Source: a virus (lineage: Duplodnaviria; Caudoviricetes). From it: 64,000 bases of DNA. The notes under the pieces were generated by a model. It saw nothing but the letters and a program-made list of their open reading frames with translations, made no database searches and was not told where the DNA came from. Numbering within the stretch: the first letter of the stretch is position 1; each line of letters begins with the position of its first letter. Shown here in pieces: positions 10,540 through 35,869 of the stretch. The DNA lies in the IMG/VR virus record IMGVR_UViG_3300044655_001017; one strand, 5' to 3'. The translations under genes and the position numbers were made by a program.

Positions 10540-10590
10540 TATTTATCATAACTATGGCGAAGTATTATACACGCAGAAATCTTATAAATA
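10540..10590. promoter_or_regulatory. Divergent pair of late-promoter-like motifs
   Basis: GATAAATA on minus (10540-10547) and TATAAATA on plus (10583-10590) between divergent structural genes. Confidence 0.55.
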
Positions 10591-10608: not shown

Positions 10609-12963
10609 ATGGCACTAACTGTTTGGACACAATCCTCCGGGTCTCTTGGAACATTTCAAGAAGGCCTTAATTTTGAATTACAATTACCTGTTGCTAATGA
10701 CAACGGTGTTACATACACTAAAATATCTGGTGAGTTGCCTAACGGCTTATGGTTAAGTGATAATCGCATTCTTGGTACTCCGTACGAAGTTTTGCGAGAT
10801 ACATCATCATCATTCTGTATCCGCGCTAGTAAAAATAATCAAATTTCTGATAGAACATTTACTATCACAGTTACTGGCCCAGATAACCCAGTAATATTAA
10901 CACCTGCAGGATTATTAGATATTGGCATATACAAACAACTTTATGTTGTAGACGATGCGTTTGTAAACTATCAAATAGACGCATTTGATTCTGATATAAT
11001 TGCCGGACAACGGTTAACTTATTATATCACCAACGGCACGTTGCCGCCAGGGTTATCACTTACTCCTGATGGTAAAATTTACGGTGTAGTTGAATCTGTT
11101 ACTACGTTACAACCTGCTGAAGGAAATGGAACATACGATCACGGGTATTATGACGCCGGACCTTATGATTTTGCAAATCAACAACGACAAAATGGTTATG
11201 ACGAACTAAAATATGATTATATTGGGTACGATTTCTTTTTTGTAAATCAACCTCGAACACTTAACAGATTTTATGAGTTTGTAGTAGCAGTAACTGACGG
11301 TGATACATTAACTCCGCCGCATCACACATTTCAAATTTACGTAGTTAATCCTGATACGTTTAGGGCAGATTCTGAATCATTAGTTTCTAATGCTAAATGG
11401 TTTACGTCCGATGTATCTTACATTCAAGCTCCGGTATGGCTTACTCCTTCTGACTTAGGAACATTTAGAGCAAACAATTATGTTACGTTTGTGTTAGATG
11501 TTTTTGATACAACTGCTGTATATTATGAAGTTGACGACATTACAAAGTTGCCACCTAATATGAACATTGACTTAATAACAGGCGAAATATACGGCCGTGT
11601 TCCTGTACAACCGGCAGTTACTACAACCTACACGTTTACAGTAACTGCTATTAGATATGGAGACGTTGACACTGACGAAACAAACCGTGCGTCAAGAACA
11701 TTCACTGTTAAAATTATAGGCGAACTTGATAGTATTATTACATGGAACACTTCAGCTAACCTGGGACGAATTAATGCAGGTTATGTATCAACGTTTAACA
11801 TTAATGCATCTAGTTCTATAAAAGATGCACAAATAACATATGTGATAACAGGTGGAAAATTACCACCCGGATTAACCCTATCATATGACGGTGAAATATT
11901 AGGTACAGTATCACAATTTTCTAATCAGATTAATTTTGACAATAGAACTACTGTATTTGATGTTAATGCATCAGTATATCGAGTTACGTTTGACACGTAC
12001 AATTTAAAGAAAGCGCCCGGTCAACATCTTAACATAACTGATTATATGTTAACTCCAAATTTAGGTACTCGTGCTCATAATACATTTTTTGATTCTAATG
12101 CAACAACTATCGGAAAAGCAATAAATTCAACTACGTTTAATAACTCTAATATTAAAAATGGTCTTATATCATTTGATCTAACACCTATTACTAAAACAAC
12201 ATTTGATAACAACAATACTACTATTGATCGTGTTTATAATTTTACTGTTGAAGCATACGACCAGTATTTCATTAGTGCAATTTCTAAAACTTTTACTATA
12301 GCAGTTGATACACCAAATGAAATTGATTACAGTAACATATATGTTAAACCGTATATGACACCTAGTCATAGGGCAATATGGTCTAAATTTATTAATAACC
12401 CGTCTATTTTTACTCCAGATAACTTATACAGACAATACGATTCAATGTTTGGGTTACAATCAACGTTATCTATGATAATATATGCTGGCATTGAAACTAA
12501 ACATATTTCAGCTTATAACGAATTATTATCTGAACAGGTTAAACGATTTAAATTTGGAAATTTACAAAAAGCAATTGCATATATTTCCGGTACTAAAACT
12601 CCGGTATACGAAGTAATTTACGTTAATATGGTAGATCCATTATTAGAAGACACATTGTATGCAAAGGACAACGTTACTATGTGGAGATCGCAAATATCAA
12701 ATGTTGGTGAAGTTAGGTGGGATTACTTACCATTATGGATGCGATCTATACAACCGGGTGATAGAAAACAATTAGGTTTTGTATTAGGGGTGCCACTCTG
12801 TTATTGTAAGAATGGCGCAGCTGACGAGATTTTATTAAACATTAAATATAGTAATTTTGATTTTAAATTACTTGATTATACAGTTGACAGATTTACAATA
12901 ACTAAAGTTAACGGCTACGATGCCGATAAATATATTGTATTTAACAATAGGAACCACATATGA
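10609..12963 (+). CDS. Ig-like (putative Ig/He_PIG) repeat virion protein, possibly baseplate
   Basis: Four G.LP.G(L/M).L...G.I.G.P modules followed by F(T/C)(V/I).A; Tyr-Asp-rich segment. Confidence 0.7.
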   Translation: MALTVWTQSSGSLGTFQEGLNFELQLPVANDNGVTYTKISGELPNGLWLSDNRILGTPYEVLRDTSSSFCIRASKNNQISDRTFTITVTGPDNPVILTPAGLLDIGIYKQLYVVDDAFVNYQIDAFDSDIIAGQRLTYYITNGTLPPGLSLTPDGKIYGVVESVTTLQPAEGNGTYDHGYYDAGPYDFANQQRQNGYDELKYDYIGYDFFFVNQPRTLNRFYEFVVAVTDGDTLTPPHHTFQIYVVNPDTFRADSESLVSNAKWFTSDVSYIQAPVWLTPSDLGTFRANNYVTFVLDVFDTTAVYYEVDDITKLPPNMNIDLITGEIYGRVPVQPAVTTTYTFTVTAIRYGDVDTDETNRASRTFTVKIIGELDSIITWNTSANLGRINAGYVSTFNINASSSIKDAQITYVITGGKLPPGLTLSYDGEILGTVSQFSNQINFDNRTTVFDVNASVYRVTFDTYNLKKAPGQHLNITDYMLTPNLGTRAHNTFFDSNATTIGKAINSTTFNNSNIKNGLISFDLTPITKTTFDNNNTTIDRVYNFTVEAYDQYFISAISKTFTIAVDTPNEIDYSNIYVKPYMTPSHRAIWSKFINNPSIFTPDNLYRQYDSMFGLQSTLSMIIYAGIETKHISAYNELLSEQVKRFKFGNLQKAIAYISGTKTPVYEVIYVNMVDPLLEDTLYAKDNVTMWRSQISNVGEVRWDYLPLWMRSIQPGDRKQLGFVLGVPLCYCKNGAADEILLNIKYSNFDFKLLDYTVDRFTITKVNGYDADKYIVFNNRNHI

Positions 12964-13579: not shown

Positions 13580-13810
13580 ATGCATCCATTAGTAAACGAT
13601 TTATCAACATTAAAAACTGCTGATATTGAAGCTAAAATAAATGATTTAACAAAAAAGTATTTTATGACTTCAAATTTTGAAGTACAATGCCAAATCTCAT
13701 CTATATTAGACTCTTACAAAGAAGAAGTAGGAAGACGACAAGCTGAAGAATGGAATAAAGTGATGGAATCAAGAAATAAAGGACTTGACAAATTAATAAA
13801 TGTAAGTTAA
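13580..13810 (+). CDS. Hypothetical protein
   Basis: AAGGT RBS, 76-aa helical ORF in operon. Confidence 0.7.
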   Translation: MHPLVNDLSTLKTADIEAKINDLTKKYFMTSNFEVQCQISSILDSYKEEVGRRQAEEWNKVMESRNKGLDKLINVS

Positions 13811-13813
13811 AAT
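13785..13813 (+). promoter_or_regulatory. sigma70-type promoter
   Basis: TTGACA-N17-TAAAAT just before the DnaE-fragment gene. Confidence 0.7.
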
Positions 13814-13819
13814 ACATAC

Positions 13820-14326
13820 ATGAAATTAGACAAATTTGCAAATCCAATTTTTAACGAAGCTGATGTGTTTGATGCCCTGTATGCAGGGCATCAGTCAGCA
13901 ATCTCAAATATCGTAGTTGAAGATAACTACGAATTTTTACAATTATCAAACATAGCAGAAATAACCTTTGCTAAAAATTTAGAAACATTAGACACTACTG
14001 TTGAAGAGTACGACAGTATTAATCAACAACATTGGTTTATGCCTGAACAGTATTATACATTTAATATACAAGAATATTGCATTAGTAAATGCAACTCCTT
14101 AGATGAACAAACTAGGGTTATTGAAGAATTGGCTGAATTTAAAAATAGAAATTTAATGCAAGTATTACAATGGTTAAAATATTTTGTCGATACTTGTTTA
14201 GCTGAAAACATAATATGGGGTGTAGGTAGAGGGTCTAGTGTTTCAAGTTTTGTATTATATTTGTTAAATGTTCATAGAATTCATAGCATTAAATATAATT
14301 TAGACTGGCGAGAGTTTCTAAGATAA
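13820..14326 (+). CDS. Stand-alone fragment homologous to DNA polymerase III alpha (DnaE)
   Basis: RVIEEL...WGVGRGSSVSSFVLYLLNVHRIHSIKYNLDWREFLR mirrors DnaE GRGSAAGSLVAY.LGIT..DP.KY.L.FERFL; only 168 aa. Confidence 0.75.
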   Translation: MKLDKFANPIFNEADVFDALYAGHQSAISNIVVEDNYEFLQLSNIAEITFAKNLETLDTTVEEYDSINQQHWFMPEQYYTFNIQEYCISKCNSLDEQTRVIEELAEFKNRNLMQVLQWLKYFVDTCLAENIIWGVGRGSSVSSFVLYLLNVHRIHSIKYNLDWREFLR

Positions 14327-14352: not shown

Positions 14353-14679
14353 ATGTCAGATTTTCATAAATCAGCTAGAGGTAAAGTCGTCGATATGAAT
14401 CGACTAATGAGTCAAAATGAACTAATGGTTGCAGTTAGCAATGTTAAAATTAATGCACGCGGGGATGAACTCGGGCCAGGCGGGCAAATTATTCGTAATC
14501 AAAATAGTGGAGAATCTAGCTATGTAGGGGTTCCGGTTGAACACCGTTCATTTGGAAATAATTTAACGCAACCACTAGTACGCCCTGAAGTAGTTACAGA
14601 AGCGCCAAATGCATTAGTACAACCAATTCCTGAACCTATAGAAAATAAACCATTAGAAAAAACATCAAAAGGCAAATAA
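14353..14679 (+). CDS. Hypothetical protein
   Basis: AAGGAG RBS; 108 aa; coupled to groES. Confidence 0.75.
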   Translation: MSDFHKSARGKVVDMNRLMSQNELMVAVSNVKINARGDELGPGGQIIRNQNSGESSYVGVPVEHRSFGNNLTQPLVRPEVVTEAPNALVQPIPEPIENKPLEKTSKGK

Positions 14680-15080: not shown

Positions 15081-15109
15081 TTGACATTCTCCATTACTTA
15101 CTATATAAT
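15081..15109 (+). promoter_or_regulatory. sigma70-type promoter inside a 12-bp inverted repeat
   Basis: TTGACA-N17-TATAAT; AGTAATGGAGAA (15068-15079) and TTCTCCATTACT (15087-15098) flank the -35 box. Confidence 0.8.
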
Positions 15110-15135: not shown

Positions 15136-16062
15136 ATGCAAATGGCAACAACATCATTATGGGTTGAAAAATATCGTCCAAATACAATAGATAGCTACGT
15201 ATTTAGAGATCAGCAGCAAAAAAATCAAATAGACGGGTGGATTAAACAGCAAAGCATTCCACATCTACTGTTTAGTGGTAGTGCCGGTATTGGTAAAACT
15301 ACACTTGCAAAAATATTGTTTAATGAACTAGATATTGAACCATTAGACATTTTAGAAATTAACGGATCAAGAACTAACTCAGTTGACGACGTTCGTAACT
15401 TAATTACTAACTTTGTACAAATGATTCCGTTTGGTGACTTTAAAGTTGTATTATTAGACGAAGCAGATTACTTATCAGTGAATGCACAAGCAGCATTGCG
15501 TGGGGTTATGGAAGAATATCATAACACTGCAAGATTTTTACTTACATGTAACTATCCGCATAAAATTATTCCTGCTATACATTCAAGATGTCAAGGGTTT
15601 CATATTGAAAAAGTTGATATTGTAGAATTTACTGCAAGGGTAGCTACTATTTTAGTAGAAGAAAATGTTGATTTTGATTTAGACACACTTGATACTTTTG
15701 TTAAAGCAACTTACCCAGATCTACGAAAATGTATTAATACAGTACAGATGAACAGTTTAAGTGGTACGCTTGCGTCACCATCATATAGCGATACTGGTAG
15801 CGGCGACTATAAAGTAGAAATGGTAGAATTATTTAAAGCAGGTAAAATATCCGATGCCCGTAAACTGCTATGTTCTCAAGCACGACCAGAAGAGATGGAA
15901 GAAATCTATAGATGGTTATATGATAATGTAGAAATATTTGGTAACGAGACACTACAAAATAAAGCTATCCTTATTATTAAACAAGGACTAGTTGATCATA
16001 CTATTATTGCAGATGCAGAGATTAATTTATCTGCTACATTAATACGATTAGGCAATCTGTAA
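15136..16062 (+). CDS. Clamp loader AAA+ subunit (RFC / T4 gp44-like)
   Basis: LWVEKYRP, Walker A GSAGIGKT, LLDEAD, AQAALR, SRC motif, DLRKCIN. Confidence 0.92.
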   Translation: MQMATTSLWVEKYRPNTIDSYVFRDQQQKNQIDGWIKQQSIPHLLFSGSAGIGKTTLAKILFNELDIEPLDILEINGSRTNSVDDVRNLITNFVQMIPFGDFKVVLLDEADYLSVNAQAALRGVMEEYHNTARFLLTCNYPHKIIPAIHSRCQGFHIEKVDIVEFTARVATILVEENVDFDLDTLDTFVKATYPDLRKCINTVQMNSLSGTLASPSYSDTGSGDYKVEMVELFKAGKISDARKLLCSQARPEEMEEIYRWLYDNVEIFGNETLQNKAILIIKQGLVDHTIIADAEINLSATLIRLGNL

Positions 16063-33035: not shown

Positions 33036-33209
33036 ATGGAAGAATTTAATACCTGTACGGAATGCATCCGTCCGGAAGTATGTACAGTAAGATGTGAATG
33101 CAGTATCATTGTTCATGGATCAGAAGAAGTTGCAAAACAACGCGACGAAGCGATGTTTATGGAATGGATTAATGATCATGCAACTAATCGCGATAGAGGT
33201 GCAGAATGA
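33036..33209 (+). CDS. Small Cys-rich protein
   Basis: MEEFNTCTECIRPEVCTVRCECS; ATG at 33036 preferred over the GTG inside the hairpin; ATGA overlap with the polymerase start. Confidence 0.5.
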   Translation: MEEFNTCTECIRPEVCTVRCECSIIVHGSEEVAKQRDEAMFMEWINDHATNRDRGAE

Positions 33210-35869
33210 GTTATGTAGATGCATGGTTTGATCGCGATAATGATGTTATTAAAATTGTAGAAAGAAATTCAAAAGGTGAACGGGAATACAAAGATATTGC
33301 CGTTAAACACACATTATATTATACAGACCCGAAAGGGAAATATCAATCAATTTACGGAGACCCCGTATCAAAAGTAATTTGTAACAATACAAAAGAGTTC
33401 CGCAAAGAACTTTCAATACACGGTAATAAAAAGCTGTTTGAAGCAGATATTAATCCAATTTTTAAATGCTTATCAGATAACTACCTTAATCATGACGCAC
33501 CTAAATTAAATATTGCGTTTTATGATATTGAGGTTGATTTCGATCCAGAACGCGGGTATGCATCACCCGATGATGCGTTTATGCCTATTACTGCTATTGC
33601 AGTGTATTTACAATGGTTAGATACTCTTATTTGTTTAGCAATACCTCCAAAGACATTAACTATGGATCAAGCTAAAGAACAAATTAGAGATATTCCAAAT
33701 ACTATTCTCTTTAACACAGAAGCAGAGATGTTAGACACATTTTTAACACTGCTTGAAGATGCTGATATTATTAGCGGATGGAATAGTGAAGGATTTGATA
33801 TACCATACACTGTAAATCGTGTTACAAAAGTTCTATCAAAAGATGATACACGCAGATTCTGCTTGTTTAATCAATTACCAAAAAGACGTGAATATGAAAA
33901 GTACGGCAAAGCTGCAGTAACATACGACTTTGTAGGACGTGTGCATTTAGATAGTTTACAATTATATCAAAAGTACACATATGAAGAAAGACATAGTTTT
34001 AGACTTGATGCTATTGCTGAATATGAGTTAGGTGATCGTAAAACACAGTACGAAGGTACGCTTGATCAGTTATACAACAATGACTTTAGAACGTTTATTG
34101 AGTACAACCGTCAAGATACTATGCTATTACACAGACTTGATACAAAATTAAAGTTTATTGACCTAGCTAATACACTTGCACACGAGAACACTGTATTACT
34201 ACAAACTACTATGGGTGCGGTTGCTGTAACAGAACAAGCAATTATTAACGAATCACATCACAGAGGGTTTGTTGTACCTAACAGAAAAGGTAAAGCAGAA
34301 CCAATTCAAGCTGCAGGTGCGTATGTTGCGTATCCTAAAGAAGGAATTCATGACTGGATTGGCTCGCTAGATATTAACTCTCTGTATCCAAGTGCCATTA
34401 GAGCATTAAATATGGGTCCGGAGACTATTGTAGGACAACTTAGACCAATCGTAACTGACGAATACATAGGCTTACAACTAGCTAAAGGTAAATCGTTTGC
34501 TTCTGCATGGGAAGGGTTGTTTGGTACACTTGAATATACGTCTGTTATGAATGAAGAAATAGGTACTGATATTACAATTGACTGGGAAAATGGCGATACT
34601 GATATATTAAGTGCTGCTGAAGTATACAGATTGATATTTGAAAGTAATCAGCCATGGGTTATGTCAGCTAATGGAACTATCTTTTCATATGAAACAGAAG
34701 GTATTATTCCTGGATTACTAAAGCGATGGTATGCAGAACGTAAGGATATGCAGAAAAAGCTAAAAGAAGCTATTAATGCAGGTAATAAGATTGAAGAAGA
34801 ATATTGGGATAAACGTCAGCTGGTTAAGAAGATTAACCTAAATAGTTTATATGGTGCTATTCTTAATCCTGGATGTAGGTTCTTTGATAAACGTATTGGG
34901 CAATCAACTACGTTAACTGGCAGACAAATTGCTAAACACATGGCAGCTAAAGTAAATGAGATTATAACCGGCGAATACAATCACACAGGTAAGTCTATTA
35001 TTTACGGTGACACTGACTCTTGTTACTTTTCAGCGTATCCTACACTTAAACGTGAAATAGATAATGGTAGTTTACCATGGTCTAAGGAAACTGTTGTTCA
35101 ATTATATGATCAAATTAGTGATCAAGTTAATAGTACATTCCAACAGTTCATGCTTGATGCATTTCATTGCCCTAAATCACGTGGTGAAGTAATTAAAGCT
35201 GGTCGTGAGATTGTTGGTAGTAAGAGCTTATTCATTACTAAAAAACGTTATGCAGTACTAGTATACGATAAGGAAGGTAAACGTAAGGATACACTTGGTA
35301 AAAACGGTGAAATTAAAGCTATGGGCTTAGATTTAAAGCGTAGTGATACACCTGAATTTATTCAAGACTTCTTATCACAAGTATTAGAAATGGTATTAGG
35401 TGGTGATACTGAACAGCATGTACTAGATTACATCAGTAAGTTTAGGATATCGTTTAAAGCTAGACCAGGTTGGGAAAAAGGTTCGCCTAAACGCGCTAAT
35501 AGCATTACGTCTTATTTAGAAAAAGAAGCTAAACAAGGCAAAGTTAATATGCCCGGACATGTTAGAGCAAGTTTAAACTGGAATACACTAAAACGTATGT
35601 ATGATGACAAGTATTCGATGTCTATTACAGACGGTGCAAAGGTAATTGTATGTAAACTTAAACAAAACCCATTAGGGTTTACAAGTGTTGCGTACCCAGT
35701 AGATGAATTACGCTTACCGCAATGGTTTAAAAACCTACCATTTGATCATAATGGAATGGAAGATACTATTATTGATAACAAACTTGATAACTTGATTGGC
35801 ATTTTGAACTGGAAATTAGCTGACACGTCAGATAGAAACACATTTAACAGTTTATTTGAATTTGAATGA
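33206..35869 (+). CDS. Family B DNA polymerase (T4 gp43-like)
   Basis: Exonuclease motifs YDIEV, GWNSEGFDIPY and YNRQD; polymerase motifs DINSLYPS, KINLNSLYG and YGDTDS. Confidence 0.97.
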   Translation: MSYVDAWFDRDNDVIKIVERNSKGEREYKDIAVKHTLYYTDPKGKYQSIYGDPVSKVICNNTKEFRKELSIHGNKKLFEADINPIFKCLSDNYLNHDAPKLNIAFYDIEVDFDPERGYASPDDAFMPITAIAVYLQWLDTLICLAIPPKTLTMDQAKEQIRDIPNTILFNTEAEMLDTFLTLLEDADIISGWNSEGFDIPYTVNRVTKVLSKDDTRRFCLFNQLPKRREYEKYGKAAVTYDFVGRVHLDSLQLYQKYTYEERHSFRLDAIAEYELGDRKTQYEGTLDQLYNNDFRTFIEYNRQDTMLLHRLDTKLKFIDLANTLAHENTVLLQTTMGAVAVTEQAIINESHHRGFVVPNRKGKAEPIQAAGAYVAYPKEGIHDWIGSLDINSLYPSAIRALNMGPETIVGQLRPIVTDEYIGLQLAKGKSFASAWEGLFGTLEYTSVMNEEIGTDITIDWENGDTDILSAAEVYRLIFESNQPWVMSANGTIFSYETEGIIPGLLKRWYAERKDMQKKLKEAINAGNKIEEEYWDKRQLVKKINLNSLYGAILNPGCRFFDKRIGQSTTLTGRQIAKHMAAKVNEIITGEYNHTGKSIIYGDTDSCYFSAYPTLKREIDNGSLPWSKETVVQLYDQISDQVNSTFQQFMLDAFHCPKSRGEVIKAGREIVGSKSLFITKKRYAVLVYDKEGKRKDTLGKNGEIKAMGLDLKRSDTPEFIQDFLSQVLEMVLGGDTEQHVLDYISKFRISFKARPGWEKGSPKRANSITSYLEKEAKQGKVNMPGHVRASLNWNTLKRMYDDKYSMSITDGAKVIVCKLKQNPLGFTSVAYPVDELRLPQWFKNLPFDHNGMEDTIIDNKLDNLIGILNWKLADTSDRNTFNSLFEFE

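Follow-up and report, generated by a model that had tools for sequence, protein, structure and literature searches.

Why should a phage that already possesses a full family B replicase also carry a short piece of the bacterial replicase DnaE, under a promoter of its own and ending just where the catalytic residues ought to begin? The question is raised by positions 13,820 to 14,326 of a 64,000-nt stretch of DNA (hereafter the window, at its full length) from a virus of the Caudoviricetes, an uncultured lake jumbo phage (IMG/VR record IMGVR_UViG_3300044655_001017). A preliminary description of this mini-DnaE, made from the letters alone, offered three interpretations and chose none of them: a decoy or dominant-negative inhibitor of the host replisome, one half of a split polymerase, or a re-purposed nucleotide-binding module. 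The analysis reported here argues for the second and finds nothing in support of the first. Judging from sequence comparisons, the gene is probably the N-terminal nucleotide-binding unit (hereafter the N-half) of a minimal split DNA polymerase III alpha, which would be completed by a separately encoded C-half and would, once assembled, act as an enzyme of short synthesis.

Homology and Boundaries of the 168-Residue Protein

The gene is an intact open reading frame (ORF) that runs from ATG to TAA on the plus strand, with the clean stop that had been noted at the outset. Its parts are as follows:

13820..14326 (+): candidate N-terminal (NTP-binding) unit of a split minimal Pol III alpha, 168 aa plus stop
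13820..14023 (+): residues 1–68, family-specific and very acidic N-terminal extension (pI 4.05, net charge -10)
14024..14323 (+): residues 69–168, helical DnaE palm part, strand beta1, GS loop and next helix, equivalent to E. coli alpha 278–393, with terminal EFLR
14219..14239 (+): loop G134-V-G-R137-G-S139-S140, invariant in 81 sequences, counterpart of E. coli G359-P-G-R362-G363-S364-G365

The homology to DnaE that the preliminary description had proposed proved significant. The Pfam family PF07733 (DNA_pol3_alpha) matches residues 95–167 to positions 22–94 of its 260-position profile (E = 2.5e-9; 37.6 bits, for a cut-off of 23.9 bits), PHROG 11127, a 171-position model, matches from end to end (E = 7e-38), and a look-up in the ESM Atlas returned only virus clusters of the N-half's own family. 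An AF2 model of the protein, built on 32 relatives, reached a mean pLDDT of 85.7; when it was compared with 48,161 PDB chains, seven C-family polymerases stood out at Z 7.6–12.3, the next chain being at 3.7. Residues 69–168 of the model align with E. coli Pol III alpha 278–393 and with M. tuberculosis DnaE1 306–413 (Z 10–12; rmsd 2.2–2.8 Å over 94–98 residues), and the same search also aligned them with PolC 824–965. Identity to solved DnaE proteins amounts to 16–20%.

In the profile alignment, R137-G138-S139 falls on E. coli R362-G363-S364, within the G359–G365 loop, the triphosphate-binding GS motif of the Pol-beta-like fold, and the terminal E-F-L-R falls on R390-F391-L392-N393. In E. coli alpha, D401 and D403 are catalytic residues and D555 is the third catalytic carboxylate. 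Since EFLR sits on residues 390–393, the chain stops about 8 residues short of D401 and 10 short of D403, i.e., just before the catalytic aspartates, exactly as first noticed. The equivalents of all three carboxylates are absent from the 168-residue polypeptide and present on the partner described below. Within these 168 residues, which comprise only the palm segment 278–393 plus the extension, no PHP, fingers, beta-binding or OB domain was found.

Set against bacterial alpha, the N-half shows an added acidic N-terminal domain, a new invariant histidine and the replacement of an arginine by glutamate. The acidic extension is present in most family members, with D15, Y21 and D65 invariant, and residues 1–68 have no counterpart in any of the 48,161 solved chains searched. 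His152 is invariant and family-specific, E. coli alpha having Thr377 at this place, and the position of E. coli R390, which we take to contact the phosphates of the incoming nucleotide, is occupied by Glu (or Asp) throughout the family. Because the protein has a pI of 4.67 and a net charge of about -11, DNA binding by the N-half alone is unlikely. A zinc site composed of C87, C91, C126 and H152 was considered and rejected, as the cysteines vary across the family. A C-terminal clamp-binding peptide was likewise discarded, the tail NLDWREFLR being unlike the NxLF[DE]F tails of the phage's polymerase and of its DpdA-like enzyme; this tail corresponds to the FERFL segment of DnaE.

Conservation, Promoter and Gene Neighbourhood

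The truncated look of the gene is the sole point in favor of a decaying pseudogene derived from a full-length phage DnaE, a reading that the preliminary description had already doubted for want of a downstream remnant. Protein database clusters (90% identity) contain at least 1693 relatives of 166–171 aa. Across 88 loci (80 from IMG/VR, the others from cultured phages), the ORF is intact in every case, measures 162–177 aa and ends at EFLR within one residue, and pairwise dN/dS lies at about 0.05–0.2 when limited to pairs with dS<1. A profile search of 1.84 billion representatives yielded 2048 clusters; the best 150 of them are 98–222 aa long, with each match extending to the C-terminus, and no fused N+C form occurs among these 150. 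A search for longer proteins gave a single relative, the 301-aa P0121, which also ends at EFLR. In this chimera, from a 2.4-kb metagenome contig, about 190 residues of unrelated sequence are linked to the final ~110 of an N-half; recombination or mis-assembly probably produced it.

Cultured relatives, 31–44% identical to the window protein, are found in Rak2/GAP32/121Q-like phages, PA5oct, Atu_ph07, Phosso, Serratia BF and Erwinia SNUABM phages, all of which are large T4-related myophages. The N-half belongs to the core genes of phages infecting Enterobacteria, Pseudomonas, Rhizobiales, Xanthomonas, Vibrio and uncultured lake hosts, with no host-specific variation among them.

The surroundings of the gene are equally regular, and the following features of the window are referred to below:

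13580–13810: gene for a conserved 76-aa helical protein, directly 5′ of the N-half in 80 of the 88 loci
13785..13813 (+): sigma70-type promoter TTGACA-N17-TAAAAT, 11/12 match
14353–14679: 108-aa gene (phrog_14844), always directly 3′ of the N-half, including in GAP32, PA5oct, Phosso and Atu_ph07
15136–16062: clamp loader gene
33206–35869: family B polymerase, 887 aa (PF00136 and PF03104)

The sigma70 promoter that had been assigned to the gene is indeed there, overlapping the last codons and the stop of the upstream 76-aa gene, and its pattern is kept in all 77 related metagenomic loci, invariably with a spacer of 17. From the end of the -10 hexamer to the N-half ATG, the distance is 6 nt in the window and 5–7 nt in 70 of the 77 loci, and the -35 element reads TTGACA in 75 of them, despite CTT and GAC being minority codons in these upstream genes. 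In the related loci examined, no Shine-Dalgarno sequence precedes the N-half. This arrangement suggests early transcription by the host RNA polymerase and a nearly leaderless mRNA. As a side observation, the C-terminal codons of the 76-aa gene serve also as the -35 element; no family match was found for the protein that this gene encodes.

A block of genes is kept in almost all of the 80 IMG/VR loci, in the order Ig-domain late gene, 203-aa gene, 76-aa gene, N-half and 108-aa gene, and continues with a GroES-like gene and an RFC/gp44-like clamp loader, often followed by dCMP deaminase and PhoH. Cultured phages retain the downstream part of the block, which starts at the 108-aa gene and includes the clamp loader. 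The gene that follows the N-half is small, conserved and unrelated to it, and the absence of a downstream DnaE remnant stands, as does the presence of a complete family B polymerase in the window. The 108-aa protein has a conserved stretch of ~55 residues at its start (motif NARGDxLGxGG) and a variable tail. Elsewhere in the same region, a T4-type late promoter, TATAAATA (10583–10590), lies 19 nt ahead of the Ig-domain (He_PIG) gene at 10609–12963, and a perfect 12/12 sigma70 consensus (15081–15109) precedes the clamp-loader gene at 15136, so that late and early units alternate within 5 kb.

Taken with the 88 intact ORFs and their fixed end, purifying selection, the 2048 clusters and the conservation of both promoter and synteny refute decay, and the pseudogene reading can be given practically no weight.

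A Second Gene Family Carries the Catalytic Residues

If the gene is one half of a polymerase, a complementary DnaE part is expected elsewhere in the genome; the preliminary description had called for a search for such a part, and it was found outside the window. The partner belongs to a second family, of about 186 aa and starting with MPDIDIDF, which keeps the three catalytic Asp, the Lys of KxDFL and the finger motifs. Its invariant positions comprise D3, D5 and D7; HNTG; K63 and D65 in FKIDFLNV, the DnaE KxDFL motif with E. coli K553 and D555; RPAKR; and F..HA..Y. The finger motifs RP and F.K.HA.AY are invariant throughout the family, which numbers at least 7813 members of 185–200 aa.

The C-half profile matches M. 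tuberculosis DnaE1 (E = 4.6e-6) in four collinear pieces, where C-half residues 1–13 correspond to 413–425 (MPDIDIDF identical), 37–85 to 482–531, 53–137 to 566–663 and 153–175 to 765–788, the alignment passing over most of DnaE1 426–565. The AF2 model of the C-half matches C-family polymerases only (Z 5.5–8.9; E. coli 401–781). Among cultured phages, Phosso XYS97594.1, which starts with MKKVTDIDIDF, and its Atu_ph07 homologue are C-half genes, and three IMG/VR contigs of 270–372 kb carry the C-half with E-values of 1e-55 to 1e-65, the closest being a 186-aa ORF that starts with MPDIDIDF. PHP, thumb, clamp-binding and OB domains were found in neither half.

The C-half family has no precomputed Pfam domain. 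When four complete relatives were searched with PF07733, PF17657 and PF02811, models that cover the palm, fingers and PHP domain of DnaE, nothing except the N-half gene rose above the cut-offs, and no PHP match appeared in these four genomes. The reading that the genome holds no partner, drawn from this Pfam result, was wrong: the sub-threshold PF17657 matches in these relatives (E 0.002–0.007) were the partner gene. In another locus (L093:1492-2052 (-)) and in GenBank records, PF17657 is likewise the best Pfam match of the C-half and again below the cut-off (E 0.006–0.04). GenBank mostly labels the C-half “hypothetical protein,” and the labels go as far as “putative membrane protein.” The match spans two annotated CDS in many Rak2-like records, whose gene models are probably in error at this point.

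The Two Halves Abut on DnaE and Travel Together

The model of the N-half ends at M. tuberculosis DnaE1 413 and C-half residues 1–13 start at 413; hence the second half takes up the DnaE sequence exactly where the first leaves off, with only about six residues of the DnaE NPERVS linker missing between them. No intein, which had also been sought on the advice of the preliminary description, was found in either half, as the DnaE-like sequence of the N-half continues to its very end and that of the C-half begins with its first residue. Any association of the halves must therefore be non-covalent.

Both halves are present in 12 of the 12 genomes tested, namely GAP32, PA5oct, Phosso, Atu_ph07, three IMG/VR contigs, Stenotrophomonas CM1, Ralstonia RsoM2USA, Salicola SCTP-2, Vibrio 2.275.O and the Alishewanella phage Slickus01. 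In PA5oct, the pair consists of EST35_0288 and the ORF at 143956–144501, and in GAP32 of GAP32_323 and the ORF at 213328–213909. In a phage collection, the N-half occurs in 92 records and the C-half in 96, with matching genus tallies. Inside one phage clade, co-occurrence of this kind can be plain co-inheritance. The halves lie 147–176 kb apart in the two largest of the three IMG/VR contigs. In Slickus01 (OQ508957.1, 141.6 kb), they are located at 68373–68831 and 79817–80032, only about 11 kb apart, and the split mini-polymerase is thus not confined to genomes >200 kb.

In the genome under study, a tblastn search with the Phosso and Atu_ph07 C-halves found no C-half in the window. A C-half protein, P0135 (186 aa, starting with MPDVDIDF), has 38 of its 38 sequence-index words in the same genome, 125,828 nt past the end of the window, i.e., about 175.5 kb downstream of the N-half gene; this placement is an index-word match. 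The P0135 cluster and the window protein also share 355,155 bp as their largest contig. Ahead of the three C-half genes that were examined, no evident copy of the N-half promoter pattern was seen.

These results bear on two readings in which the N-half would act without the C-half. According to the first, the N-half alone would be a non-catalytic nucleotide/phosphate sensor or a replisome adaptor, and its co-occurrence with the C-half would reflect shared ancestry. The invariant GRGSS loop and His152 would suit a stand-alone sensor, the acidic N-terminal extension could be a protein-binding surface for an adaptor, and the location of the gene in a conserved block, from the 76-aa gene through the 108-aa and GroES-like genes to the clamp loader, and under its own promoter at a distance from the C-half, fits an independent role. 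Against this, the end of the N-half is the exact start of its partner, strand beta1 has no partner strands inside the protein, and the 12 of 12 co-occurrence extends to very divergent genomes and to a 141-kb phage. A stand-alone role is accordingly judged improbable.

The second reading is the decoy or dominant-negative fragment directed against the host Pol III holoenzyme. The origin of the protein from a host-type replicase and its plausible early expression would fit such a role. The known partner-binding sites of alpha lie elsewhere in the chain, with epsilon binding at the PHP domain, beta at about residue 920 and the C-terminus, and tau at the C-terminal region, and the segment 278–393 holds none of them. 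It is this lack of every known partner-binding site, together with the status of the N-half as a syntenic core gene across unrelated hosts, free of host-specific variation, that makes a decoy unlikely; the identity of only 16–20% to solved DnaE and the existence of a dedicated catalytic partner speak against it as well. We consider it very improbable, and this part of the preliminary description falls away, the split-polymerase half being the part that stands on account of the MPDIDIDF partner, the co-occurrence and the abutment on DnaE.

Proposed Enzyme and Function

In the split polymerase proposed here, the two halves would associate non-covalently and complete one beta-sheet across the active site. 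On the one hand, the N-half would position the triphosphate of the incoming nucleotide. On the other hand, the C-half would contribute the metal ligands and the template contacts. The product would be a nucleotidyltransferase of about 354 residues, devoid of PHP, thumb, clamp-binding and OB domains. The AF2 models of the separate halves are consistent with such an assembly, since their certainty is low exactly at the would-be shared sheet: in the N-half alone, residues 131–140 have a pLDDT of 76 and form no strand, and in the C-half alone, residues 1–70 have a pLDDT of 41–56, the remainder being at about 90. The searchable literature holds no experiment on binding or polymerization by the two halves. 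As the predicted complex would have no thumb and would retain little of the fingers, it need not be active as a DNA polymerase.

The assembled pair could instead be a specialized nucleotidyltransferase engaged, for example, in template-independent 3′ tailing, in the production of a nucleotide signal or in the handling of modified (7-deazaguanine) nucleotides. Pol-beta-fold enzymes cover many non-polymerase activities, and a pair without thumb, clamp-binding, OB and PHP domains, in a phage that has a full family B replicase at its disposal, fits a non-polymerase role. In DnaE, RP and F.K.HA.AY bind the template and the incoming dNTP, and the invariance of these finger motifs in the C-half argues for templated synthesis; the neighbourhood of the N-half gene, moreover, shows no link to modification genes. 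A non-polymerase role is on balance unlikely.

For the split polymerase, the most likely role would be DNA synthesis in short, distributive stretches, as in repair, gap filling or primer extension, alongside the family B replicase, with the N-half probably expressed early from its conserved sigma70-type promoter. Such a role is the most economical guess that can be made for this enzyme, and the same guess is made by Iyer et al. (PMC7824862). More tentatively, the 168 and 186 aa of the two proteins may together represent the smallest working C-family DNA polymerase known, operating by beta-sheet complementation in the absence of PHP, thumb, clamp-binding and OB domains, either as a dedicated repair or primer-extension enzyme of jumbo phages or as a living model of the ancestral Pol III core, with the acidic N-terminal domain as a docking or regulatory module; we hold this fuller version to be possible, short of probable. 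The notion of an ancestral Pol III core is a speculation of Iyer et al. (PMC7824862).

Comparison with Known Systems

The split arrangement itself has been described. A “minimal split DNA polymerase III alpha” was reported from group 2.2 jumbo phages, which are T4-related and Rak2/PA5oct/Atu_ph07-like, and the formation of an active enzyme from the two units is presented there as a prediction (Iyer, Anantharaman, Krishnan, Burroughs and Aravind, 2021; Viruses 13:63, PMC7824862). The likeness to the system described here extends to a stand-alone N-terminal palm unit with a GS loop that ends before the catalytic DxD, to a distant gene in the same genome for the Mg2+/template-binding unit, and to a T4-related phage with a family B polymerase and an RFC-like clamp loader, with homologues in Rak2-like phages, PA5oct and Atu_ph07. 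No essential difference was found, the present case being an uncultured freshwater member that is 31–44% identical to the cultured ones.

Two earlier genome papers deal with members of the same gene family: CBB_328 was annotated as a “truncated DNA polymerase III alpha subunit” (PMC5259590) and Atu_ph07 gp316 was taken for a polymerase subunit (PMC6102473). In these papers, the truncation was noted or a polymerase assumed, and the partner gene went unrecognized.

The N-half shares the fold and motifs of palm segment 278–393, including R362-G363-S364, with E. coli DnaE1 (2HNH/5FKV), the M. tuberculosis enzyme (5LEW) and PolC (3F2B). In contrast to bacterial Pol III alpha and PolC, which measure about 1160 aa, the N-half has 168 aa and lacks the PHP domain, catalytic Asp, thumb, fingers, beta-binding and OB parts. 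Cyanobacterial DnaE-n and DnaE-c likewise make up a C-family polymerase from two distant genes. Unlike the cyanobacterial split DnaE, the phage pair has neither intein blocks nor room for them, one half ending at FLR and the other starting with MPDIDIDF. Moreover, the phage break lies inside the palm beside the active site, whereas the cyanobacterial break comes after about residue 774.

Significance for the Phage Family

As the split arrangement was published in 2021, the finding is confirmatory and the gene is a further instance of a described pair. In detail, the present analysis contributes a junction fixed to the residue, statistics on selection and length, the observation that Pfam misses the partner, the acidic 68-aa extension, the conserved near-leaderless promoter and the presence of the pair in a 141-kb phage. 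The length distribution and dN/dS of the homologues, which the preliminary description had put forward as a check, show fixed lengths and purifying selection, with no sign of decay.

Environmental phages carry this family in very large numbers (at least 1693 N-half clusters and at least 7813 for the C-half), and its annotation is poor. The N-half passes for a full “DNA polymerase III alpha subunit.” The C-half lies beyond the reach of Pfam and is for that reason mostly “hypothetical,” a warning that any search for the partner relying on Pfam only will return a false negative. If the two-gene active site is true, it would set the lower limit for a catalytic core in the bacterial replicase family, and some T4-like phages would run two unrelated polymerases in parallel.
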